Shown here piece by piece: positions 6,532-18,773 of a stretch of DNA of 64,000 bases. This DNA is from Bacillota bacterium (GTDB taxonomy: Bacteria; Bacillota; JAAYKD01). The stretch spans positions 800,001 through 864,000 of the forward strand of contig OY762825.2 in the NCBI GenBank assembly GCA_963666425.2, in the 5' to 3' direction. Under the pieces are notes generated by a model. That model had not been told where the DNA came from. It saw nothing but the letters and a program-made list of their open reading frames with translations, and ran no database searches. Made by a program: the position numbers and the translations under genes. Position 1 is the first letter of the stretch, and each line of letters begins with the position of its first letter.

Positions 6532-9500
6532 TCAACCCCTCCTGTCGCATCTAAGGCATCTCATGGCTTCAGCGATTGCATTTAATTTATGGAATCCCAC
6601 GGCTACCTCATCGAAGTTATTTTTCCTCTGTTCAGCATCTAAAAATTTCATTGGGAATCTCTCGTGCTCAACAACTTCTTCGTCATTGGTCGCAGCTGGT
6701 ATTTCAATTTCTTCTCCCGTATTGAGGATCCCCTTGCCGCCCAGATATTTATCGATGGATTTGGCGGCATTCTTACCGTCCGCGATGGCGGTAATGACAG
6801 TATCCGAACCCCTCGCTACATCTCCGCCGGCAAATACACCTTTCATCTTGGTCATCAGCGTGTCCTTGTCGGTGACGAAGGTGCCCCATCTGGTTAATTC
6901 CACTTCATCTTTGTTGATGAAAGGTAAATCGGAAGATTGGCTGACCGCCGGTATCACCATATCCACTGGCAGCAAAAACTCGGAACCGGCAATCGCTTTG
7001 GGTTTCCGCCGGCCGCTGGTGTCAAATTCCGTCAGTTCCATTCTATTGCATTCGATGGCGGTGACTGCTTCTGTACCGATAAAACGGATCGGAGCAACCA
7101 ACGGAATGATTTTAACGCCTTCTTCGATGGCATCGTGAATCTCTCTGCTGTCTGCGGGCATATCCTCAATCTGTCGGCGATAAAGGATGGTAACCTCAGA
7201 GGCACCCAGACGGATGGCGGTGCGGGCTGCATCAATCGCGGTATTGCCGCCGCCGATCACCGCAACTCTGGCGCCAACCTTAACTTCGTGGCCAAGATTC
7301 ACATCTTTCAGAAAATCCAAGCCATGATAAACGCCATTCAATTCCTCACCGGGTATATTGACGAGGTTGGAGAATTGGGTACCGGTGGCGATATAGACGG
7401 CATCATGTTTGCTTTTCAGCTGATAGAAAGTAATATCCGTACCAATTTCCGTATTCAGATGAATCTTGACGCCAACTTGCTCGATTTTTTGAATTTCTTT
7501 CGCCAATACTTCTTTGGGCAGCCGGTAAGCCGGGATGCCAAAGGCCAGTACACCACCCGCCACCGGATGAGATTCATAGACATCAATATCATAACCCAAG
7601 CGGGCTAGATAATAGCCGCAGGTTAAGCCTGACGGTCCGGCTCCAATAATGCCAATGCTCTTGCCGTTTTTGGGAAAAACTAAATCCATATAAGGTTCTT
7701 CATCGTTTAAGACGTAGTCTGCGACATAACGTTTGAGATCGGCGATGGAGATCGGCTCGTCGAGCTGTCCTCTTCTGCATTTATTCTCACAGGGATGCGT
7801 GCAGACTCTGCCGCAGATCGCAGGGAAAGGATTTTCTTTTCTGACCAAATTATAGGCATCTCTGAACCTTCCGGCTGCGATCAGCGCCACATAACCCGGC
7901 ACATTGATCCCGGCAGGACAGGCATTCTGGCAGGGCGAGATAAACATATCCGCGCAGACGCCTGCTCTGCAGTGCTTATATTTAATATGCTCTTCATACT
8001 CGTCTCTAAAATTCTTGATCATGCTCAGCACAGGATTGGGAGCCGTCTGACCAAGTCCGCAGACAGCGGTATCCCGAATCGCAGCGCCGAGTTCTTCAAG
8101 CTCTTCGATATCCCCCTCTTTGCCTTCGCCGTGGGTGATTCGTTCCAGTATTTCAAGCATTCGTTTCGTGCCAATTCTGCAAGGTACACATTTACCGCAT
8201 GACTCATCCTGAATAAATTCCATGAAGAAGCGCGCCATATCCACCATACAGGTGTCTTCATCCATGGTAATCAAACCGCCGGAGCCCATAATCGCACCTA
8301 ATTTGACCAGCGATTCATAATCCATCGGCGTGTTGAGACTTTCACTCGTCACACAGCCGCCGGAAGGGCCGCCGCTCTGAGCAGCTTTAAAATTCTTATT
8401 GCGTCGGATGCCACCACCGATATCAAAGATGATCTCACCCAGCGTCGTGCCCATTGGTACTTCTACGATGCCGGTATTATTAATATTACCGGCCAGTGCA
8501 AATACCTTGGTCCCCTTACTTTTTTCGGTGCCGTAACCGGCAAACCAGCTGCTCCCGTTGAGAATAATCGGTGGAATGTTGGCCAGTGTTTCCACATTGT
8601 TGATGATCGTCGGTTTGCCAAAAAGACCGCTCTGGAAGGGGAAAGGCGGTTTTTGTTTTGGTTCGCCTCTTTCACCCTGAATCGAGGCCATCAGAGCCGT
8701 TTCTTCACCGCAAACAAAGGCGCCTGCTCCGATTCTGATCTCAATGTCAAAATCGAACGTGGAGCCAAAGAGCTGTTTACCCAATAAACCGGACGCACGC
8801 GCGCTGTCAATCGCCAAACCGAGCCGTTCAACCGCCAAAGGATATTCTGCCCGCACATAGACAAAACCTTTACGGGCACCGATCGTATAGCCTTCGATGA
8901 TCATCCCTTCTACAACGGAATGCGGATCGCCTTCCAGCAGACTTCTGTCCATAAACGCCCCAGGGTCACCTTCATCGGCATTGCAGACAAGATATTTCTC
9001 GTCGCCCGGTGCTTTCATGCCGGATTCCAACTTGATACCTGTAGGAAATCCCGCACCACCTCTGCCGCGCAGACCCGATTTTTTAACTTCATCCACCACA
9101 TCTTGCGCTGACATTTCCGATAAAACTTTGGCTGCCGCAAAGTAACCGTCTCTGGCTATGTACTCTTCCAGAGAAGAATAATCAATGCTGCCGCAGTTTC
9201 TCAGGGCAATTTTGACCTGATTTTTAAAGTAATCAATTTGATTCAAGTAAGGCACATGCTCGCCGGTTTTTTTCTCGAGATAAGTATTTTCAATTTTAAT
9301 CTTGCCCGCAATCAGATGGGATTCCACAATGGCGGGGATTTCTTTGGCACTCAGTTTGGTATAAAAAACGCTCTCGTTTTCTGATGCCCCAAATGGTTCC
9401 ACCACCATCACCGGTCCGAGATCGCAGGTCCCGATGCAGCCCGTTTCCACGACGCAAACGCTTTCGGAAAGTTGATTCTCTTGCAGCGCTTTGAGCAAAG

Positions 9501-9648
9501 CGTCTTTAACGGCGTGGCAATTGGAAGAAATGCAGCCGGCACCGGAGCAGACCAATACTCTGTAGCGATACTTGCTTTTTTCTGCTTCATATTGCTGCTT
9601 AATCAACTTGAGATCATCCATACTCTTGATCTGTTTCTTCTCGACCAT
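6532..9648 (-). CDS. NuoF/HydB-like diaphorase subunit fused to a GltD-like FAD/NAD(P) oxidoreductase domain
   Basis: GLRGRGGAGFP, NADEGDPGAFM, CGEET, ESCGKCVPCR; C-terminal half CGRVCTHPCE, IIGAGPSG, VIGGGNTAID, YRR, FAGGD. Confidence 0.9.
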   Translation of the reverse strand: MVEKKQIKSMDDLKLIKQQYEAEKSKYRYRVLVCSGAGCISSNCHAVKDALLKALQENQLSESVCVVETGCIGTCDLGPVMVVEPFGASENESVFYTKLSAKEIPAIVESHLIAGKIKIENTYLEKKTGEHVPYLNQIDYFKNQVKIALRNCGSIDYSSLEEYIARDGYFAAAKVLSEMSAQDVVDEVKKSGLRGRGGAGFPTGIKLESGMKAPGDEKYLVCNADEGDPGAFMDRSLLEGDPHSVVEGMIIEGYTIGARKGFVYVRAEYPLAVERLGLAIDSARASGLLGKQLFGSTFDFDIEIRIGAGAFVCGEETALMASIQGERGEPKQKPPFPFQSGLFGKPTIINNVETLANIPPIILNGSSWFAGYGTEKSKGTKVFALAGNINNTGIVEVPMGTTLGEIIFDIGGGIRRNKNFKAAQSGGPSGGCVTSESLNTPMDYESLVKLGAIMGSGGLITMDEDTCMVDMARFFMEFIQDESCGKCVPCRIGTKRMLEILERITHGEGKEGDIEELEELGAAIRDTAVCGLGQTAPNPVLSMIKNFRDEYEEHIKYKHCRAGVCADMFISPCQNACPAGINVPGYVALIAAGRFRDAYNLVRKENPFPAICGRVCTHPCENKCRRGQLDEPISIADLKRYVADYVLNDEEPYMDLVFPKNGKSIGIIGAGPSGLTCGYYLARLGYDIDVYESHPVAGGVLAFGIPAYRLPKEVLAKEIQKIEQVGVKIHLNTEIGTDITFYQLKSKHDAVYIATGTQFSNLVNIPGEELNGVYHGLDFLKDVNLGHEVKVGARVAVIGGGNTAIDAARTAIRLGASEVTILYRRQIEDMPADSREIHDAIEEGVKIIPLVAPIRFIGTEAVTAIECNRMELTEFDTSGRRKPKAIAGSEFLLPVDMVIPAVSQSSDLPFINKDEVELTRWGTFVTDKDTLMTKMKGVFAGGDVARGSDTVITAIADGKNAAKSIDKYLGGKGILNTGEEIEIPAATNDEEVVEHERFPMKFLDAEQRKNNFDEVAVGFHKLNAIAEAMRCLRCDRRG

Positions 9649-9661
9649 AGTCTCACCCCCC

Positions 9662-10162
9662 TTATTCATATTCTGCGATGATCGATTGAACCTTGTCGGG
9701 GTTCACCTGTTTGTAAACTTTATCATTAATTGTCATGGCAGGTGCTAATCCGCATGCGCCAATACATCTCATCACTTCGAGGGTGAATTTCCCATCCGGT
9801 GTAGTTTCTCCCACATAAATACCGAGCAGTTCCTTTAGCTTGTCGATAATCTTTTTACTTCCTCTGACATAACATGCTGTTCCCAGACAAACCCTGATCG
9901 TGTTTTTACCTCTGGGTTTGGTTGAAAAAAACGAATAGAACGTAACAACCCCGGTCACTTCCGATAAGGGTTTTCCTACCCTCTCCGCGATGAACTGCAT
10001 AAGTTCAATCGGCAGATAGCCATAAATCCCCTGGGCGATATGCAATATCTGAATCAGACTGCCCTCTTGATCACGGTATTCTTCAATCACAGCAGCGATA
10101 CGGTCATACTTTTCCTGGTCGGTTTCTTCTTTGCATGTACATTGGTTCTTCTGTTCGCTCAT
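9662..10162 (-). CDS. NuoE/HydC-like 2Fe-2S subunit
   Basis: VCLGTACYVRG...RCIGACGLAP thioredoxin-like 2Fe-2S motif. Confidence 0.92.
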   Translation of the reverse strand: MSEQKNQCTCKEETDQEKYDRIAAVIEEYRDQEGSLIQILHIAQGIYGYLPIELMQFIAERVGKPLSEVTGVVTFYSFFSTKPRGKNTIRVCLGTACYVRGSKKIIDKLKELLGIYVGETTPDGKFTLEVMRCIGACGLAPAMTINDKVYKQVNPDKVQSIIAEYE

Positions 10163-10553
10163 AATGCCTCCTAAAACTACCTTCAAAGGTAAAATTAACT
10201 AGCCTAGTCAACCACTTTTGCAGCAACATCAAAGCTGAACACCTTTACCCCGCCCCTCCTCATCAGAAGTAAATTCGAAAATCATTTTCCTCTTTTTAAA
10301 CACATTTAAAAAACGGCTGAGACTTCCGTCGCAAATGCTACCATATAATGCCACTAATGTCAAGATAATCTGACTGTTTTTGAAGTTTTTTTTATGTCAA
10401 CCTGCTTGTCGTCTTTTCTCCGGTTCAGAACATTACCTTTCTGATCTTTTAAATTCCGCCTCAAATCACTGATTTCTTTCTGCTTTTTGAATCTTTCAGC
10501 TGTCGCTTTTGAGCTGCTTTGTTACAAAATGACACTTCTCTTTGCTGCACTTA

Positions 10554-10916: not shown

Positions 10917-11702
10917 CTAGATTGATAACAAAGAACGATAAATCTCCTCATCTTCTTGTTTAAACACATTAAATATGACGCGTTCGATTCCGTTCGCTGC
11001 AGCAAGAAAACGTTTCGTCTCTGTAATCGCTATTTTAGTCGCTTTCAAATTTGGAAAACGGTACTCACCCGTTGCAATGCAACAGAATGCTATACTTTTC
11101 AGCTTGTGTGCCTGTACCAACGTAAGACAAGAACGATAACAGCTTGCCAAATCCTCACAAACTGCTTGGGTCAATTGACCGCGGATTCTCGGTCCAACCG
11201 TATGAATAACATATTTACTGGGCAAATTGTATGCTTTCGTCAGTTTTGCTTGCCCAATCGGTTCATCATATCCCTGTGCGATCATCAGGTGATTACACTC
11301 ATCTCGCAGCTGTAATCCAGCCGCTGAATGGATCGCATTGTCAATACAATCATGACAGGGATAAAAACACCCTAAAAGGCTGCTGTTATCCGCGTCCACG
11401 ATCGCATCCACCTTTAAACGCGTGATGTCTCCTTGCCAAATCACAAGCTGTGAATCTGATGTAGTCGGTAAGTGCATCGCATCGACCACGCCTTTTTCTT
11501 CTCGTTCAATCAAAAGCAATTCATCCTGTAAATGCAGGAAATTGGCCTGCAGTGGCCTTGGCGTGCGCACGTTCATCAGAGAACGCAGCAACTTGCGCTG
11601 CAAGACAGCATTCTCAGAAAATTGAACCATTTGATCCTGATATTGCGGCATCTCATCAAGTAATAGCCGGATTAATTCTTTCATTAGTATGAGGCTTTCC
11701 AT
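10917..11702 (-). CDS. Zn-macrodomain protein ADP-ribose hydrolase (SirTM-associated type)
   Basis: WQGDIT, GCFYPCHDCIDNAIHSAAG (CxxxHxC Zn loop), HTVGP, IAFCCIATG; N-terminal RSLMNVR extension. Confidence 0.9.
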   Translation of the reverse strand: MESLILMKELIRLLLDEMPQYQDQMVQFSENAVLQRKLLRSLMNVRTPRPLQANFLHLQDELLLIEREEKGVVDAMHLPTTSDSQLVIWQGDITRLKVDAIVDADNSSLLGCFYPCHDCIDNAIHSAAGLQLRDECNHLMIAQGYDEPIGQAKLTKAYNLPSKYVIHTVGPRIRGQLTQAVCEDLASCYRSCLTLVQAHKLKSIAFCCIATGEYRFPNLKATKIAITETKRFLAAANGIERVIFNVFKQEDEEIYRSLLSI

Positions 11703-11780
11703 AAAGTATCCCTGCGCAATCCGATTCTTGCTTCCCTCGCAAAAGTTCTCTATCCATCGGCGAAAGTTTTTTTGCCTTGC

Positions 11781-12413
11781 TTAACGAATAAAGTTCGTGT
11801 AAATTGTTGCTTCCTGTGTGGGTAAAGCAATTCCGTTTTTCAAACCTGCTTGCTTGCATTTTAAGAAGAATGCCATATTACGGCCAAGCGTTCTCATAAT
11901 CTGCAGGCCTTCCAAATCCTTTTTTACCTGATCCGGGGTCGAGCCATGAACCATATTCCAATATTGTGATGAAATAACCGGCATTTGCATGATTCCGAAG
12001 TATTTGTTTAGTTGATCATAAGCGGCTGTGCTGCCTGATCTTCTAGCCGAAATTACACATGCCGCTGGTTTCAAATAAAAAGAATGGGTTCCGCTGCATA
12101 AATCTGTATAAAATACCCGATCCAGAAAAGATGTAATTGCTCCTCCCGCAGCAGCGAAATGCACCGGAGAACCGAAAATAAAACCATCGTAATCTTTTGC
12201 TATGCTTAAGAATTCATTCACTCGATCGTCGAATACACAGCGTTTTTTCGTTGCACAAGTTTTGCAAGCGATACAGCCATTGAGCGGCTTATTGCCAATC
12301 CAGAAAATTTCTGCTTCAATTTCCTCTTTGATCAAAGTATCTGCCAGTTCTTTTAAGGCGGTATAGGTACATCCTTCTTGATGGGGACTTCCATTAACCA
12401 AAATGACTTTCAT
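11781..12413 (-). CDS. Multimeric flavodoxin / iron-sulfur flavoprotein
   Basis: NGSPH, GCIACKTC...C, FGSPVHF. Confidence 0.88.
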   Translation of the reverse strand: MKVILVNGSPHQEGCTYTALKELADTLIKEEIEAEIFWIGNKPLNGCIACKTCATKKRCVFDDRVNEFLSIAKDYDGFIFGSPVHFAAAGGAITSFLDRVFYTDLCSGTHSFYLKPAACVISARRSGSTAAYDQLNKYFGIMQMPVISSQYWNMVHGSTPDQVKKDLEGLQIMRTLGRNMAFFLKCKQAGLKNGIALPTQEATIYTNFIR

Positions 12414-12442
12414 AATCTCTACCTCTTTTTTTCCCTTTATTT

Positions 12443-13318
12443 TTAGCATGATTGCTTTTCTACAGTATTGGCTCTTTTTAGGAGAGTATCAACGATCATT
12501 TGCATATTTTCGTTAAAGGCAATTGTTTTACTCGTGTTTTCCTTTACACCCATCGGATAGTCTCTATTGACCCGAATAAGAACAGACTTGTCAGTTTGAT
12601 AGGTCATCTGCTCAAAAGGATAGCGGATGATACTAGGCGTGTTATAGCCAACACCCAAATCAAGAAAAACAGTTTCACGATCTGCTATTTGACTTAAAAA
12701 TTGTTCGTAACGTTCTTTCGCCTTATACCATTTGGCATCTTGTACAAAAAAAGCATTGTGCCGCACATTGATATCCATTTCGCCGCCACAGACCGGACAC
12801 TTGGGGATTAATTCCAGTGGTATTTTACATTCTTTTGTTTTAGCCAGCATTTGCTTGATCAATTCTTCGTTATCATAAAGCTTATCATGACAACCTACAG
12901 CGCATTGCAGAAAAGCATAATCCCCTTGAACCGCAAAAATTGTCTCCTGCAGGAAACCTGCTTTTATAAACTGCGCTTCTACATTGGTTGTTAGGATAAA
13001 ATAAGCTTTCTTTTGAACCAGCTGCAGCAAATTCTGGTAGAGTTTGGTAGCAGGCTGTGAAAAACGATTGACATCGATATGACGCGCCCAATGTGCCCAG
13101 TGTTCAGCTGGCGTTTGAAACGGATAAAATGTAGCTGCATACATATCTTTTATGCCATATTTCACAATGAAATCAGCGAAATTATCTGTAAAACGTTCAC
13201 CGGAATAGGTCAATCCCGCCGCAGCAGATAAGCCGGCACCCGCACCAATTAAAATGTAATCAGCATTTTGCAATGCTTTTTGAGCGGCTATCAGCCTCTG
13301 TTCATAATCGTACATCAA
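12443..13318 (-). CDS. Class M sirtuin (SirTM-like NAD-dependent protein ADP-ribosyltransferase)
   Basis: IGAGAGLSAAAG, TTNVE, VQGDY (Gln in place of the catalytic His), CxxxC...CPVC, GVGYNTP; co-operonic with a Zn-macrodomain. Confidence 0.85.
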   Translation of the reverse strand: MMYDYEQRLIAAQKALQNADYILIGAGAGLSAAAGLTYSGERFTDNFADFIVKYGIKDMYAATFYPFQTPAEHWAHWARHIDVNRFSQPATKLYQNLLQLVQKKAYFILTTNVEAQFIKAGFLQETIFAVQGDYAFLQCAVGCHDKLYDNEELIKQMLAKTKECKIPLELIPKCPVCGGEMDINVRHNAFFVQDAKWYKAKERYEQFLSQIADRETVFLDLGVGYNTPSIIRYPFEQMTYQTDKSVLIRVNRDYPMGVKENTSKTIAFNENMQMIVDTLLKRANTVEKQSC

Positions 13319-13319
13319 T

Positions 13320-13937
13320 TTATTCCTTTACATCGAGTAAACTATCTTCGAATCCACTATAGCGGATTCGATCTTCTTGACGAGGTTTCGCTGCCACTTT
13401 GCTATCACTTAATGAATAACCCAAAATAACATGGGCTATCGCCGCATAATCGGTTGGAATCTCCCAATCGCTCAGCAATTGCTGCCCTTCCTCACAGGAG
13501 AAAGTTTCCTTTGCTCTTGCAATGAAGCAAGAGCCGACATGAAAACTTTGAGCGGCTAACATAATATTCTGTGCCATCATACAGCAATCCGCTTCACTGT
13601 AAAGAAAGTCTTTTGGTCCGAACAGTGTTAGTAATGTCGGTGCGCCATAAAAACCGTCAGTGATAGCCGGATCATCGGCGATGCTGGGCTGATTCTTTGA
13701 AATATACACTGTTGCGGTTGAAATTCGTCCCTTGAACGAAGCGGCGTTATATTTGCCCAGCTTCTTAATGAGGCCAGGGTTTTGACAAACTCCAATTATC
13801 CCAGATTGACGGCTGCCTGCACTGGGGGCATACAATCCAGTTTCAAGGATTTGTTTCAGAATGATATTTTCAATCTGATTGGTTTTGTATTTTCGAATTG
13901 AGCGGCGTTCGATCATATTGGTGATGACTGTATTCAC
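13320..13937 (-). CDS. Nitroreductase family protein
   Basis: RRSIRKY, YAPSAG, NIMLAA..GSC; GTG start at 13937 inferred. Confidence 0.88.
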   Translation of the reverse strand: MNTVITNMIERRSIRKYKTNQIENIILKQILETGLYAPSAGSRQSGIIGVCQNPGLIKKLGKYNAASFKGRISTATVYISKNQPSIADDPAITDGFYGAPTLLTLFGPKDFLYSEADCCMMAQNIMLAAQSFHVGSCFIARAKETFSCEEGQQLLSDWEIPTDYAAIAHVILGYSLSDSKVAAKPRQEDRIRYSGFEDSLLDVKE

Positions 13938-13950
13938 AATACTCACTTCC

Positions 13951-14110
13951 TCATTTTCGTTTGATTGCCTGCACGGGACAATTTTCATAACAATATCCGC
14001 AATGCAGGGTCAATAATATGGACCTGGGGATTGCTATTTTCATCGACCGTAGCAAAAGACGCTTCGATAATCCGCTTTAAAATCTGCAGGCATTCTCTTG
14101 CTTCCATCAT
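13951..14110 (-). pseudogene. Internally deleted pyridoxamine-5'-phosphate-oxidase-like / 4Fe-4S protein
   Basis: N-terminus MMEARECLQILKRIIEASFATVDENSNPQVHIID joined out of frame to a ferredoxin tail LHCGYCYENCPVQAIKRK*. Confidence 0.65.
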
Positions 14111-15150
14111 GCGTCCGCTTTGACCTCTTTCCAGCATTGTGGGTCAGGAGCATACATATTGCCTGTATAGCCAAAAGCAACCGCAGGACAGCCACGGCAT
14201 AACTGGAATAACTCACACCTTGAGCATTTTTCGAATTTCTTATAGTCGCGGTAACAATCGAGCTCATGCCCGGTAAACAAATCATACATAGAAGCTTCAA
14301 ACACATTTCCTATTTTACTATTCATTCGACGGCAAGCGAAAACATCTCCAGATGGTAAAATAGTGATGTGATCACTGCCGCAGTGACAGCCATCATAGAT
14401 TGTGTCGCAATCCATCCCTGCTGGTAAATTGAAGATGTTTTTTTCATAAAGGTATAGCGTCCAAAGATGATCTTTCAGTTGAAAGGTAGTGTCACAGTCT
14501 TTGTATTCTGCATATTTAGACCATATTTTGTCAAGAAAAGCTTGATAAGCAAGCGGCTCTATATGGTATTCTTCACTTTTTTGTTCGCTTGTTGGGCAGT
14601 AACGGCCAAAAGTAAATACATCTGCATGATGAGCCACCACTGTGTCAATCAATTCTGGAAATTCGTTGATGTTCTTGCAGGATACCGTGCTCATTATAGC
14701 ACAGTACATACCCGCTTTTTGAATGCAGCTGATTTTTTCGAGTGTAGTATAAAATGAACCTGGTTTGCGGAACAAATCATGTGTTTCGCGCATGCCATCC
14801 AGAGAGAGTTGGTACTTTTTGCAGCCATAATGTACGAGCCAATTGCAAACATCATCATTCAGATGAAATGGATTACCAAGAATACCAAAATCAATGCTCT
14901 GTTTTTTAAGCAACATACATAGCATCCAAAAGTCCTTGTGCAGAATTGGGTCACCACCTGTAATATAAAAATACGGAGTACGCTTCAGCTTTACACACAT
15001 CTCCATACAACTGGCAACAACTTTTTCCATGTCTTCATAAACCACACTTTTGAGACAGATGTTGTTTTTTTCAGAAAAAATATAGCAGTGCTGACAGCGC
15101 TGATCACATTCATCGGTGATATGCCACTGAAAGGCAAAATAGGGATACAA
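14107..15150 (-). CDS. acgM: Radical SAM/SPASM peptide maturase, ACGX system
   Basis: FQWHITDECDQRCQHC, TGGDP, GCHCG...CRR...CSRCELFQLCRGCP...DPQCW SPASM domain; adjacent to the ACGX peptide; TTG start after GGAGG. Confidence 0.85.
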   Translation of the reverse strand: MYPYFAFQWHITDECDQRCQHCYIFSEKNNICLKSVVYEDMEKVVASCMEMCVKLKRTPYFYITGGDPILHKDFWMLCMLLKKQSIDFGILGNPFHLNDDVCNWLVHYGCKKYQLSLDGMRETHDLFRKPGSFYTTLEKISCIQKAGMYCAIMSTVSCKNINEFPELIDTVVAHHADVFTFGRYCPTSEQKSEEYHIEPLAYQAFLDKIWSKYAEYKDCDTTFQLKDHLWTLYLYEKNIFNLPAGMDCDTIYDGCHCGSDHITILPSGDVFACRRMNSKIGNVFEASMYDLFTGHELDCYRDYKKFEKCSRCELFQLCRGCPAVAFGYTGNMYAPDPQCWKEVKADA

Positions 15151-15200
15151 GATAGAACCTCCGATCATTATCTCAACGCTTGAAATCAAGCGATCGATTC

Positions 15201-15243
15201 AGGAATTTCTCAACTTCTCAATGATTGGGAAGTTGAGAACCTG
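15201..15243 (-). promoter_or_regulatory. Strong hairpin between precursor and maturase genes
   Basis: TTCTCAACTTC(T)CAAT-G-ATTG(G)GAAGTTGAGAA inverted repeat with no U-tract on the sense strand. Confidence 0.6.
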
Positions 15244-15272
15244 TGAGCAGCACGATCAATCTAAGTGCTGTC

Positions 15273-15482
15273 CTATTTCTTTTTTGGATCCGCTGCACCA
15301 CAGGCTGATGCCGGCGCTTTCTTTTCCGGGTCCGCTGCACCACAGGCTGATGCCGGCGCTTTCTTTTCCGGGTCCGCTGCACCACAGGCTGATGCCGGCG
15401 CTTTCTTTTCCGGGTCCGCTGCACCACAGGCTGATGCCGGCGCTTTCTTTTCTAAGTCGGAATCAAACAATGCAAATTTCAT
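15273..15482 (-). CDS. acgA: ACGX-repeat peptide (radical SAM target)
   Basis: MKFALFDSDL followed by 4x EKKAPASACGAADP; GGAGG RBS; upstream of the rSAM/SPASM gene. Confidence 0.85.
   Translation of the reverse strand: MKFALFDSDLEKKAPASACGAADPEKKAPASACGAADPEKKAPASACGAADPEKKAPASACGAADPKKK
15287..15452. repeat. Four tandem 42-bp coding repeats within acgA
   Basis: GGTCCGCTGCACCACAGGCTGATGCCGGCGCTTTCTTTTCCG unit, nearly identical copies. Confidence 0.95.
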
Positions 15483-15698
15483 ATAATTACCTCCACTGAT
15501 CTGTTTACAAGATTTTTATCTTGCTATCTATAAATATACAGGGACGATGACATTTCCACAAGTATGCACTAATCTATTACATAGTTACTTTTTGTAACCA
15601 ATGAATTGGCTCTTGCGTGCTTTGATGACTTGCTTTATAATAACAGTATGGTAGCCGTTAAAATTTGACATTGCATTCAGTACTAAGGAGATATTAAG

Positions 15699-16028
15699 AT
15701 GCTTACAAAAGAAGAAATGCCAGCTTGCCCGGTGGCAACAACGGTACAATTGATCGGAAGCAAATGGAAACTACTAATAATGCGCAATTTACTAGGTGGA
15801 ATGCAGCGTTTTGGTGAACTGAGAAAAACGATACCCGGTATCAGTTCTAAAGTATTGACAGACAGCCTTCGTTCCATGGAAGCAGATGGCATTGTTAAGC
15901 GTGTTGTCTACGCCGAAGTACCTCCACGCGTAGAATACTCATTAAGCGAGCTTGGCGAGAGCATGCGGCCGATCATCAAGTCAATGGAAGCTTGGGGAGC
16001 AAACTACAAAGATTCGTTTCTTATTTAA
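15699..16028 (+). CDS. HxlR-family winged-helix transcriptional regulator
   Basis: CPVATT..IGSKWKLLI...YAEVPPRVEYSLS; N-terminal Cys typical of redox-sensing HxlR/YodB proteins. Confidence 0.92.
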   Translation: MLTKEEMPACPVATTVQLIGSKWKLLIMRNLLGGMQRFGELRKTIPGISSKVLTDSLRSMEADGIVKRVVYAEVPPRVEYSLSELGESMRPIIKSMEAWGANYKDSFLI

Positions 16029-16427: not shown

Positions 16428-18320
16428 TTAATTTTTGACTAATTCAATTTCTGAAAGCACAACCGAGCCGTCTAGTCCGCTGGTGCCGATCGCGTAAACT
16501 TTCGTTGCACCGGTCTGGTCGATAAAACTAATCGCTCTTGTTGGTAAAACCCCGGGGAAACTCACCCAGACTACCAGAGGGAGATCTTTAGTAAAGTTTG
16601 GTATGAGATAGAGCGCCTTGTTTTCGATGAAACGCAGCGTGTTGGTATCTGCTTCGTTGAAACTGATGTCCAGAAATTTAAAATTCGTCAAGGCAGTGTT
16701 CGCGGTGATCAGGATCCTCTGGGCGTAATCATCCTGAGGCACTCCGAATTCGTTGTAAGATTCGTATTGGCTTAAAAGTTCCTCCGTGGCATAGTCAGCA
16801 AAAACGACGCGATCGGCCTCAAGATATTTTTGATACAATTTCATAGTCGCTGCAGTGTAGGCATTGCCATATTGCTCCAGCATGATCGCCGTACCGTACT
16901 CTTGCGTGATGATTTCTGTATTCGTGACGCAGATATGCCGCCACTCCGCTGCTTCAGAACCATGGTAGAGCAGCAGGTAAGGCTGACCAACGCTGCTTGC
17001 TTCGGTAAGCCATTTCTCGCCAGCAATCTCCTGAACATTCATACCGCCAACCAAAACGCTGTCAACATCACCCGCCGTAAGCAGACGATATTCCAGCCTG
17101 TACAAGTTCAAACTATAGTTCTGTGATGCCGTGCCGGTGTTCATCTGCGTCAGCCCGTTGATTTTGGCTGCCGTAATCGAAACCCCCGGAGCAATTTCAG
17201 ACCACGCCGCACGATCAGACTCAATCTGCTGCCAAACGTATTGTTTTGCATCCGTTCTGACAGCTTCCGGAATGCTGTCATCCACTTCGACTACGATTGC
17301 CGCCGCATCAGCGATCCATGGCAGCGCTTTCTCTTTTGCTCCCGTAAAGGTGCAGTAGACGGCGACAGCGGCGATGACTAAAACGGTGACCAGGGTGTAG
17401 ATGGCCATTTTCGGCTTTTTAGCAATCCGAGTGATCCGCTCCTTGATGCTCTGGGGGCTGCTCGTCATGGTGGTAGCCGTCACTAAAAAAGCTGCGCGTT
17501 TTTTGCAGGTCATATCGATCAGCGTACGACCGTATTCGGCACGGGCAGCTTCGCCGATGCGCTTGATGGTGCCTTCATCACAAGCCAGTTCCGCGTCCTG
17601 GCGCGAAAGCCTTGCCGCCCACCAGACAAATGGGTTATACCAATGCAAAGCAAGACTAATGCCGCGTAAGGCAGCCCAAACATGATCCCCATGATAGAAA
17701 TGGGTCGTCTCATGAGCCACACTATGCCGAAACAGAATCGCGTTTTCAGCGGCTTCGGGTGTAAGATAAATTGCCGGAGCGAAAAGGCCAAACAGACAGG
17801 GCGTCTCAACTACTGCGGTAACATAGATGGGCAGGCGTGCGTCCTGGCTGGGTAAAGGTCGGCGCGTCCTGCGTAAACGAATGGCAAAGCGTCCGTTCGC
17901 AACAGCGAAAACAACAAAAAAGAGTGCCGTACCGCCGAACCAGATCGGTCTCAGCAGTTTGCGTAAGACCAGTAATGTTTCCAGACGCGTATATTCTTCC
18001 GCTGTTCTATTTTTCGCAATGACAGTTGGGAAATTTCGCAGGAGATCCGCCGGGAAATAACCTGCTACGCTGCCATCGGGCTGATGCTCTATTTGTTCTA
18101 CCACACTGATGCTTTCTGCATCCTGCACGACAAGCATCTTTTCCACTGCGTTCATCACGCTCAAGCTGCTGTTCCAGAGGCTGAACGGGACGAGCAGCCG
18201 CAGGAGTACAAGTCCCCAGAGAGCGTATTGCAGCCGCAGACTAATTTTACCTTTTAAAAGAGAGCGCAGCAGGATGATCAGCGCAATCAAAATGCACGAG
18301 GTCAGAATCCATTCAATCAT
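16428..18320 (-). CDS. BlaR1/MecR1-type M56 metallopeptidase with a non-PBP extracellular domain
   Basis: YALWGLVLLRLLVP, AHETTH, LHWYNPFVW, ELACD. Confidence 0.9.
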   Translation of the reverse strand: MIEWILTSCILIALIILLRSLLKGKISLRLQYALWGLVLLRLLVPFSLWNSSLSVMNAVEKMLVVQDAESISVVEQIEHQPDGSVAGYFPADLLRNFPTVIAKNRTAEEYTRLETLLVLRKLLRPIWFGGTALFFVVFAVANGRFAIRLRRTRRPLPSQDARLPIYVTAVVETPCLFGLFAPAIYLTPEAAENAILFRHSVAHETTHFYHGDHVWAALRGISLALHWYNPFVWWAARLSRQDAELACDEGTIKRIGEAARAEYGRTLIDMTCKKRAAFLVTATTMTSSPQSIKERITRIAKKPKMAIYTLVTVLVIAAVAVYCTFTGAKEKALPWIADAAAIVVEVDDSIPEAVRTDAKQYVWQQIESDRAAWSEIAPGVSITAAKINGLTQMNTGTASQNYSLNLYRLEYRLLTAGDVDSVLVGGMNVQEIAGEKWLTEASSVGQPYLLLYHGSEAAEWRHICVTNTEIITQEYGTAIMLEQYGNAYTAATMKLYQKYLEADRVVFADYATEELLSQYESYNEFGVPQDDYAQRILITANTALTNFKFLDISFNEADTNTLRFIENKALYLIPNFTKDLPLVVWVSFPGVLPTRAISFIDQTGATKVYAIGTSGLDGSVVLSEIELVKN

Positions 18321-18706
18321 CTCTGTTCATCTCCCTCCATTTTTCGTAAAATTGCATACAATTCGTCAATCTCTTCCTGCGGCAGCGCCTGCTTTTTGGT
18401 CAGCGAACTGACCAAAAGGCTAAGGCTGCCCTGATAAACGCGGCCAATAAAATCTTCGGTTTCCTGCCGAACGGCATCCTCTCTACGAATGAGCGGTCGA
18501 AAAGATTTCATACCGCCTTCGCTGCTGCTGAAAACCGCTCCTTTTGTTTCCATGCGGCGCAGCAATGTTAGGGTTGTGCTGCGATTCCACCCCATGCGCT
18601 CCTGCAGCCACTCCGTTGCTTCGCGGCCTGTCCTGGGTGCTTTTTGCCATAGACATTCCATGACACTCCATTCAGCCGATGTCAGGTTTAATTTCTGACT
18701 ACTCAT
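18317..18706 (-). CDS. BlaI/MecI/CopY-family repressor
   Basis: LTSAEWSVMECLW...WNRSTTLTLLRRMETKG. Confidence 0.92.
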   Translation of the reverse strand: MSSQKLNLTSAEWSVMECLWQKAPRTGREATEWLQERMGWNRSTTLTLLRRMETKGAVFSSSEGGMKSFRPLIRREDAVRQETEDFIGRVYQGSLSLLVSSLTKKQALPQEEIDELYAILRKMEGDEQR

Positions 18707-18723
18707 CGAATCACACTCCTCAT

Positions 18724-18773
18724 TGTTTACGCCTGTAAACACAGTATAGTCTGCTTGTTTACAATTGTCAACA
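18724..18773 (-). promoter_or_regulatory. BlaI-type operator pair overlapping a sigma-A promoter
   Basis: Palindromes TGTTTAC-N4-GTAAACA and TGTTTAC-N4-GTCAACA; TTGACA-17-TATACT. Confidence 0.75.

Follow-up and report, generated by a model that had tools for sequence, protein, structure and literature searches.

An operon joining the ACGX radical SAM peptide system to a SirTM/Zn-macrodomain pair, and the recurrence of this linkage in other genomes

Class M sirtuins (SirTM) and Zn-dependent macrodomains (Zn-macrodomains) have been described as lone pairs, as parts of an extended operon with GcvH-L, or as fusions (Rack et al. 2015; Ariza et al. 2024), and their carriers include Lachnospiraceae and Clostridiaceae (PMC4518038, PMC11490716). 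The SirTM operon of S. aureus has been tied to oxidative-stress resistance, with ADP-ribosylation protecting lipoyl-GcvH-L (PMC4518038; PMC12440151), and PMC11490716 gives the targets outside the GcvH-L operon as unknown. The ACGX system (TIGR04340/TIGR04341), a repeat peptide with its own radical SAM/SPASM maturase, has a database name only, being catalogued but uncharacterised. The locus described here combines the two in a single operon. It lies in a stretch of 64,000 nucleotides (the window) from a Bacillota bacterium (assembly GCA_963666425.2, contig OY762825.2, positions 800,001 to 864,000 of the forward strand), and the same linkage of ACGX genes with SirTM and Zn-macrodomain recurs in many lineages, numerous gut anaerobes among them, in rearranged gene orders and repeatedly regained.

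The operon consists of seven tightly packed minus-strand reading frames, from position 15482 down to 10917, with junctions of -7 to 118 bp between the genes. The gene order is the ACGX-repeat peptide, the TIGR04340 maturase, a relic of a gene for a PNPOx/4Fe-4S protein (PNPOx-FeS), a nitroreductase, SirTM, an FMN_red-family flavoprotein and the Zn-macrodomain, and the operon is divergent from the gene of an HxlR-family regulator that bears an N-terminal Cys. The first-pass annotation, which was made from the sequence alone, had named all these genes, and reading-frame analysis and family searches found each of them where it had placed them; its statement that the operon contains neither protease nor exporter is likewise correct for the operon genes of the window. 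Recurrence of the linkage in many other genomes puts the arrangement far beyond chance.

A second instance was found in the genome G278, of another family, where a divergent HxlR regulator (79% identical to that of the window) is followed by the peptide, the maturase and a nitroreductase, and the operon then continues with a frameshifted 4Fe-4S nitroreductase, an intact PNPOx-FeS gene, the Zn-macrodomain and SirTM. In a wide scan, one genome per species was searched with a four-sequence maturase alignment, and the best 80 of 534 relatives were kept (loci are given here as L numbers), which makes this a biased sample of those most similar to the query. A gene was counted as linked if it shared the strand of the maturase and was no more than 6 kb away from it, in the 53 loci that had at least 4 kb of sequence downstream; divergent genes may be missed by these counts, since tblastn was run with one or two queries, and most of the loci come from metagenome bins, some of whose taxon labels may be wrong. 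SirTM was found in 35 of the 53 loci and the Zn-macrodomain in 23; ten loci had SirTM and no macrodomain in the available stretch, and in 18 no full-length SirTM was nearby. When the maturases were de-replicated at 90% identity, for which 72 of the 80 had usable frames, SirTM was adjacent in 25 of the 36 evaluable clusters.

The unselected sample comprised all 262 genomes of one family-level order, the order of G278 having 14 genomes only, too few for an unbiased sample. The ACGX maturase was present in 27 of these genomes and SirTM in 110, and SirTM occurred in 23 of the 27 ACGX genomes as compared with 87 of the 235 others (Fisher p 1.7e-6, the relatives not being independent). In 7 of the 27, from five genera, both SirTM and the macrodomain were found no more than 4 kb from the maturase, and in one further genome they were some 10.5 kb downstream of the ACGX genes; in the remaining genomes with ACGX and SirTM the pair was on other contigs or far off. 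The co-occurrence that the first-pass annotation had proposed to measure is thus seen in the related loci and in the unselected family alike. The gene orders met in the ACGX loci were macrodomain–SirTM, SirTM–macrodomain and SirTM–X–macrodomain (the window, L066 and L084), and in two genomes the macrodomain was last in the ACGX operon, with SirTM beyond the divergent HxlR gene.

The SirTM gene of the window (12443..13318, minus strand) encodes a protein for which Pfam gave no hit, but which matches the solved structure of S. pyogenes SirTM (PDB 5a3a, E 7.3e-57). Its VQGDY stretch aligned with IQGEY of 5a3a, with Gln-Gly replacing the sirtuin catalytic His, which is the QG motif of SirTM as described in PMC4518038 and PMC11490716. 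The GAGxGLS motif, Q131-G132 and the four Cys of the Zn module were invariant in an alignment of 55 rows, and deacylase sirtuin models reached only 21-27 bits, with cut-offs of 243-320. The protein is therefore predicted to be an NAD+-dependent mono-ADP-ribosyltransferase. Many SirTM matches (genus g295 and others) were interrupted by a single in-frame stop (TGA, TAA or TAG) close to profile positions 286-289, most likely because the profile extends past the natural stop into the gene that follows. The Zn-macrodomain gene (10917..11702, minus strand) is one gene downstream of SirTM, with the FMN_red gene between them. Its product scored 328.2 bits on the NF003163 model ‘protein-ADP-ribose hydrolase’ (cut-off 272), aligned over residues 7-260 with the N-terminal helical extension included, and matched the structure 8rsi at E 8.9e-74 in an alignment from residue 9. 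The Cx4HxC and Dx3H motifs that together define Zn-macrodomains (PMC11490716) are both present, as a Zn-loop CFYPCHDC and as DNAIH.

The HxlR-family regulator (15699..16028, plus strand; PF01638, 116.7 bits) carries its N-terminal Cys, Cys10, in an MPACPV stretch, and a Cys in the form (A/I)CPV is common to the HxlR proteins of the window, L012, L127 and L129. The nearest NCBIfam model is redox_TF_RrpB, on which it scored 123.6 bits, below the cut-off of 175; redox sensing through the HxlR Cys may be suggested from this likeness. A divergent HxlR gene was found no more than 2 kb upstream in 45 of the 60 related ACGX loci with at least 1.5 kb of upstream sequence. The divergent intergenic region (15483..15698), which is presumed to be a shared promoter and operator, showed no inverted repeat. 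The promoter scan was not above shuffled sequence (14 promoter-like sites, with a shuffled mean of 14.7), nor was the terminator scan (8 terminator-like sites against 5.2).

The precursor peptide (15273..15482, minus strand; 69 residues) consists of a short leader followed by 4 x EKKAPASACGAADP, each unit containing a C-X3-D motif with the Asp four residues past the Cys. The units are encoded by a 42-bp tandem repeat (4.2 copies, 97% identity), and a GGAGG ribosome-binding site stands ahead of the ATG. As the first-pass annotation had said, Cys, Asp, Glu and Lys are in every repeat of this peptide. Its score on TIGR04341 ‘ACGX-repeat peptide’ was 21.7 bits, under the cut-off of 28; it has four exact A-C-G-A-A-D-P units 83 bp upstream of the maturase, and these align with 23 peptides from related loci. 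The near-identity of the repeat DNA (15276-15452) points to recent expansion or homogenisation, and the repeat number varies widely in relatives, from 2 to 11 CG dipeptides per peptide. Directly after the peptide stop and before the maturase there is a hairpin-like cagcac...gtgctg element (15240-15272, minus strand), absent from the listing of the terminator scan, which may be a partial terminator that sets the ratio of peptide to enzyme.

Related peptides were recovered in 70 cases (69 from the 80 scanned loci and one in L012), and these have a conserved leader followed by [AS]-C-G repeats, often doubled as SACGSACG. After these come two small residues, then Asp or Glu and then Pro or Lys, and the repeats are separated by linkers rich in P, E and K. 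Counted as the last Cys of a unit plus the acidic residue, C-X3-D/E was present in 166 of the 183 terminal units of 55 related peptides, namely in 114 of 131 units with SirTM adjacent and in 52 of 52 with SirTM absent. Because it is kept with or without SirTM, the acidic residue is a property of the ACGX unit and is not linked to SirTM; no feature of the peptide was found to follow the presence of SirTM, neither this residue nor the number of CG units.

The maturase (14107..15189, minus strand; PF04055 and PF13186) scored 540.8 bits on TIGR04340 ‘radical SAM/SPASM domain protein, ACGX system’ (cut-off 400), and a Cx3Cx2C motif can be read in its sequence. The next-best named model was that of the thio(seleno)oxazole maturase SbtM (TIGR04082) with 159.9 bits, below its cut-off of 350, and the model of the ranthipeptide maturase PapB (NF047865) gave 52.7 bits, below 340. 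According to PMC9413430, PapB cross-links Cys to Asp in six C-X3-D motifs, by a bond between the sulfur and the beta-carbon, and according to PMC11002830 SbtM removes four hydrogens from Cys to give thiooxazole. By analogy with PapB, the Asp of the repeat could be conserved for the maturase's own chemistry, as a cross-link partner. A local modification of each Cys by the ACGX maturase is somewhat more likely, because the Ala before and the Gly after are strict at every Cys, including the first Cys of a doublet, which has no Asp at +4. No protease or exporter recurred in the related ACGX loci, which suggests that the ACGX product probably stays intracellular.

The history of the SirTM proteins was followed in a FastTree phylogeny of 83 sequences, of which 48 were next to ACGX genes, 34 were not and one was about 10 kb away. 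The tree contained eight changes of context, at least five of them forced by well-supported branches, as compared with a mean of 26.8 after shuffling; a smaller IQ-TREE run gave four changes, two of them forced. Sister SirTMs were found with and without ACGX (L172/L160, and L173 with L138 and L154), and the ACGX-free genomes that hold such sisters include a 100%-complete genome in two contigs. In the genus g257, 20 of 26 genomes had SirTM and none of the 26 had ACGX, single-contig genomes included. A macrodomain stood beside SirTM in 18 of 20 lone loci, where the neighbours included Rrf2 regulators (6), NmrA-like NAD(P)H-binding proteins (5), PNPOx-FeS (2) and HxlR (2). Since the pair is common in ACGX-free genomes and the macrodomain is kept beside lone SirTMs, SirTM and Zn-macrodomain form a self-sufficient, mobile two-gene unit, which entered ACGX operons several times. 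In another five loci (L129, L133, L134, L131 and L162), which have neither ACGX genes nor a macrodomain, SirTM ends an operon of PNPOx-FeS and an OpuA-type ABC transporter (a fused permease/binding protein and an ATPase); L129, L133 and L134 have a divergent HxlR match.

The explanation that we regard as the best, held tentatively and at somewhat less than an even chance of being right, is that an HxlR-controlled ACGX operon for redox or electrophile stress captured a mobile SirTM/Zn-macrodomain pair, that the acceptor of the pair is shared with ACGX-free genomes, and that the linkage comes from co-regulation. Thiol-reactive stress would act on HxlR and turn the operon on, and each A-C-G unit would be modified at its Cys by the maturase, most likely through an SbtM-like four-electron oxidation to thiooxazole, the alternative being a PapB-like Cys-to-Asp thioether in each C-X3-D unit. 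The product would not leave the cell, where it would act as a sulfur-based scavenger or redox carrier serviced by the flavoenzymes, i.e., the nitroreductase and the FMN reductase, or in relatives PNPOx-FeS or a quinone oxidoreductase. By analogy with lipoyl-GcvH-L, the precedent in which the mark shields a sulfur cofactor, SirTM and NAD+ would under stress mono-ADP-ribosylate an acidic residue of a redox-sensitive carrier, and the Zn-macrodomain would erase the mark on recovery. The pair would be found in ACGX operons because both serve under the same stress; the matured peptide would be the best operon-encoded candidate for the acceptor, yet the less likely option. The same SirTM clades work without ACGX, and the acceptor should therefore be, at least primarily, something that ACGX-free genomes also have. 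The stress theme is seen as well in the partner genes, which are all flavin or NAD(P)H oxidoreductases.

Several points weigh against this explanation. In the one case that has been characterised, the operon of the SirTM also encodes its substrate, for which the enzyme shows high specificity (PMC4518038); Zn-macrodomains from lone pairs do not demodify GcvH-L (PMC11490716). Substrates specific to their context thus have a precedent, and this speaks for an acceptor encoded in the operon, the peptide for instance. One SirTM clade of 43 members is ACGX-linked in 41 of them, and it is not obvious how co-regulation of a general kind would bring the pair so frequently into ACGX operons rather than into other stress operons. 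The HxlR signal and the maturase chemistry, finally, are both drawn from family resemblance alone.

The first-pass annotation had proposed that the modified peptide may replace lipoyl-GcvH-L as the substrate, and had described the operon as being without GcvH-L or lipoate ligase. In the genome of the window (18 contigs, 98.5% complete) there are two genes with a GcvH domain (PF01597), both far from the window, and one lipoate ligase. One GcvH and this sole LplA are inside a canonical gcvT-gcvH-gcvPA-gcvPB-lplA-lpd operon, whereas the second GcvH domain forms the C-terminal portion of a 375-residue fusion with a DGC domain. Both domains best match canonical GcvH structures; the S. pyogenes GcvH-L structure 5a35 was matched by the fusion only (E 1e-4) and not by the canonical GcvH. 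As both are canonical-like and LplA is single, there is no dedicated GcvH-L/LplA2 pair, i.e., neither an operon-encoded GcvH-L nor a second lipoate ligase LplA2 was found in this genome, in agreement with the first-pass expectation. The search of 142 further loci gave no homologues of GcvH or LplA, save one marginal LplA match (E 0.002). The DGC/GcvH fusion (L005:6061-7984; contig 1, ~2.314 Mb) keeps the lipoyl-Lys context; it is downstream of a SAM methyltransferase, with a 125-residue reading frame without a Pfam family between them, and two more DGC-domain genes come after it, which is an unusual setting for a GcvH domain.

These results bear on a second explanation, which is possible and which we consider doubtful: that SirTM marks the ACGX peptide itself, once the radical SAM enzyme has matured it, and that the Zn-macrodomain unmarks it, the mark shielding or parking the modified sulfur and the peptide replacing GcvH-L/LplA2. 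It would fit the absence of GcvH and the near-absence of LplA from the further loci and the presence of canonical GcvH only in the window's own genome, and it would also explain a linkage that is recurrent and survives rearrangement, and the large SirTM clade that is nearly always linked. The peptide offers an Asp at a fixed distance from the Cys in every window unit and linkers that space the repeats like beads on a flexible string, and it is probably intracellular. An operon-encoded substrate that depends on a sulfur cofactor has a precedent (PMC4518038), and the targets of lone SirTM/Zn-macrodomain pairs are stated as unknown in PMC11490716. Against it stands the frequency of related pairs without ACGX, both in the unselected family and in g257 as counted above, and close sister SirTMs differ in their ACGX context. 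The acidic residue, fully kept where SirTM is absent, is not tied to SirTM and may be the cross-link partner of the maturase (PMC9413430). SirTM is missing nearby from the 18 ACGX loci mentioned and the macrodomain from ten of those with SirTM, and 16 of the 23 family genomes with both ACGX and SirTM keep SirTM elsewhere in the genome.

The oxidoreductase genes of the operon vary between loci. The 50-codon frame behind the maturase (13985..14137, minus strand) is a relic left by an internal deletion, as its match to the N-terminal PNPOx part of an intact 258-residue PNPOx+4Fe-4S gene (PF01243 and Fer4 domains), which has the same place in relatives, indicates (tblastn, L012:4032-4808, E 6e-6; also L059, L072 and L086). 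The first-pass annotation had called it a decayed PNPOx/4Fe-4S gene, and this holds, with the PNPOx part seen in the window and the 4Fe-4S part supplied by the homologues. Its stop overlaps the start of the nitroreductase gene (ATGA junction; 13320..13988, minus strand; PF00881, 71.6 bits). A nitroreductase homologue follows the maturase in 39 of the 53 related loci, and PNPOx-FeS is present in 27. The FMN_red flavoprotein (11781..12449, minus strand; PF03358, 99.1 bits) has homologues in only three related loci (L053, L075 and L083) and no match in a PDB sequence search. Its PF03358 alignment begins at residue 13, and its real start is probably 33 nt downstream of the annotated one, at MKVILVNGS. 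Its sequence can be read to contain Cx2Cx2Cx5C, and we regard it as iron-sulfur-flavoprotein-like.

In 20 of the loci whose genes were clustered, 21 operon genes encode an MDR-type (ADH_N/ADH_zinc_N) oxidoreductase, which in 16 of the 20 comes directly after the maturase, in the place of the nitroreductase (L052, L056, L060, L066-L069, L074, L077, L078, L084, L085, L089, L092, L093, L095 and others). A DUF1848 protein (PF08902, 338 bits), which has no counterpart in the window, is encoded in 13 ACGX loci, usually just before the Zn-macrodomain (L056, L066, L084, L041, L043, L048, L055, L058 and others). In the second ACGX+SirTM locus, L012:3205-4090, a 4Fe-4S/nitroreductase fusion is split into two overlapping frames, probably by a frameshift. 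This frameshift and the PNPOx-FeS relic of the window suggest that the accessory reductases are dispensable.

Such a flavin or Fe-S protein is often directly beside the pair, and in the window the FMN reductase is between SirTM and the macrodomain. It is conceivable, if unlikely, that the pair tunes the pathway by reversible ADP-ribosylation of an operon enzyme, whether maturase, nitroreductase, PNPOx-FeS or FMN reductase. PNPOx-FeS is present in about half of the ACGX loci (27 of 53), in 2 of 20 lone loci in f33 and in 6 of 20 SirTM loci of the phylum sample (L129, L130, L133, L134, L135 and L138). No single enzyme is constant across the loci, however: the PNPOx-FeS gene of the window is a dead relic while SirTM and the macrodomain are intact, the MDR-type oxidoreductase has taken the place of the nitroreductase in 16 of its 20 loci, and the FMN reductase is confined to three related ones. 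Of the enzymes of the S. aureus operon, none was modified according to PMC4518038. PNPOx-FeS was rejected as a constant partner or target, since many SirTM-bearing loci lack it and the window has no more than a relic of it.

Both modules are patchy. The ACGX maturase is rare: it was found in none of nine other genomes of the window's class, above its cut-off in 4 of the 401 phylum-sample genomes (the window's own included) and in one of five genomes of one genus, and the SirTM/macrodomain pair occurs in many contexts. This distribution would be expected if there were no functional link at all, a mobile SirTM/macrodomain cassette hitch-hiking at operon 3' ends and travelling along with patchy, transferable ACGX operons. 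We consider this improbable, in view of a linkage regained in different orders at least five times in the SirTM tree, of the linkage in most de-replicated clusters (25 of 36), and of the difference in co-occurrence between ACGX genomes and others in the unselected family. SIR2 domains occur in several defence systems, and an anti-phage system built on SIR2 and macro domains was considered and given hardly any credence, as PADLOC gave a generic radical-SAM likeness of the maturase to viperins and otherwise matched none of the operon proteins, and as SirTM and the macrodomain match structures of an oxidative-stress system.

The neighbouring genes belong to other units. A BlaR1-type M56 sensor and a BlaI-type repressor (16428-18742) form a separate unit outside the operon, and a NuoE-like 2Fe-2S protein with a 1045-residue NuoF/GltD-like fusion is also outside it, in the flank at 6532-10186.

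What is new is an ACGX-type extended SirTM operon, whereas the SirTM/Zn-macrodomain pairs and the ACGX families were known beforehand. In the literature searched, which did not extend to subscription papers and supplements, neither the ACGX families nor a combination of ACGX, SPASM or HxlR with SirTM or macrodomains was found; some of these loci may appear, as ‘operon’ type, in the supplementary tables of Ariza et al. With GcvH-L as the only known SirTM substrate, the repeated linkage gives a short list of candidate acceptors, and the linkage under a thiol-type regulator suggests redox or electrophile stress as the physiological condition under which to seek the ACGX product. It is possible, though we lean against it, that matured ACGX peptides are intracellular multi-unit sulfur carriers that are reversibly ADP-ribosylated by a dedicated SirTM and unmarked by the Zn-macrodomain. 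If true, this would be the first ribosomal repeat peptide, resembling a ribosomally synthesised and post-translationally modified peptide (RiPP), that serves as a regulated redox cofactor arm. It would also give the first SirTM substrate other than GcvH-L and a second widespread type of ‘extended SirTM operon’ in gut anaerobes, and, with the peptide as acceptor, RiPP-type chemistry would for the first time be linked to reversible ADP-ribosylation.

Among the known systems, SbtM, PapB and the ACGX maturase are all SPASM radical SAM enzymes, and the first two act on Cys in short repeated motifs. The six C-X3-D/E motifs of PapB have the same spacing as the C-G-x-x-D of ACGX; the ACGX maturase is far under the cut-offs of both models, and its chemistry is inferred only. 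With the ACGX system the window shares an above-cut-off maturase and the repeated A-C-G and, with most members of that system, HxlR together with a reductase. It differs from the usual form in having one ACG per 14-residue unit instead of the SACGSACG doublet, a short and atypical leader, a peptide under the TIGR04341 cut-off and a decayed PNPOx-FeS gene. Lone (‘minimal operon’) SirTM/Zn-macrodomain pairs have the same two enzymes without GcvH-L, whereas the pair of the window is embedded in a larger conserved operon. The extended SirTM operon of Staphylococcus and Streptococcus comprises GcvH-L, the Zn-macrodomain, SirTM and LplA2, together with OYE and LLM oxidoreductases. The window has in common with it a SirTM with the QG motif, a Zn-macrodomain with Cx4HxC and Dx3H, flavin oxidoreductases and a presumed redox-stress setting. 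It is unlike it in lacking GcvH-L and LplA2, in its divergent HxlR and in the separation of SirTM from the macrodomain, and the oxidoreductases of the ACGX loci are from other families (nitroreductase, FMN_red, PNPOx-FeS and MDR). In the extended operon the small carrier of a sulfur group is GcvH-L; in the window the candidate for this part is a ribosomal repeat peptide with a radical SAM maturase of its own.

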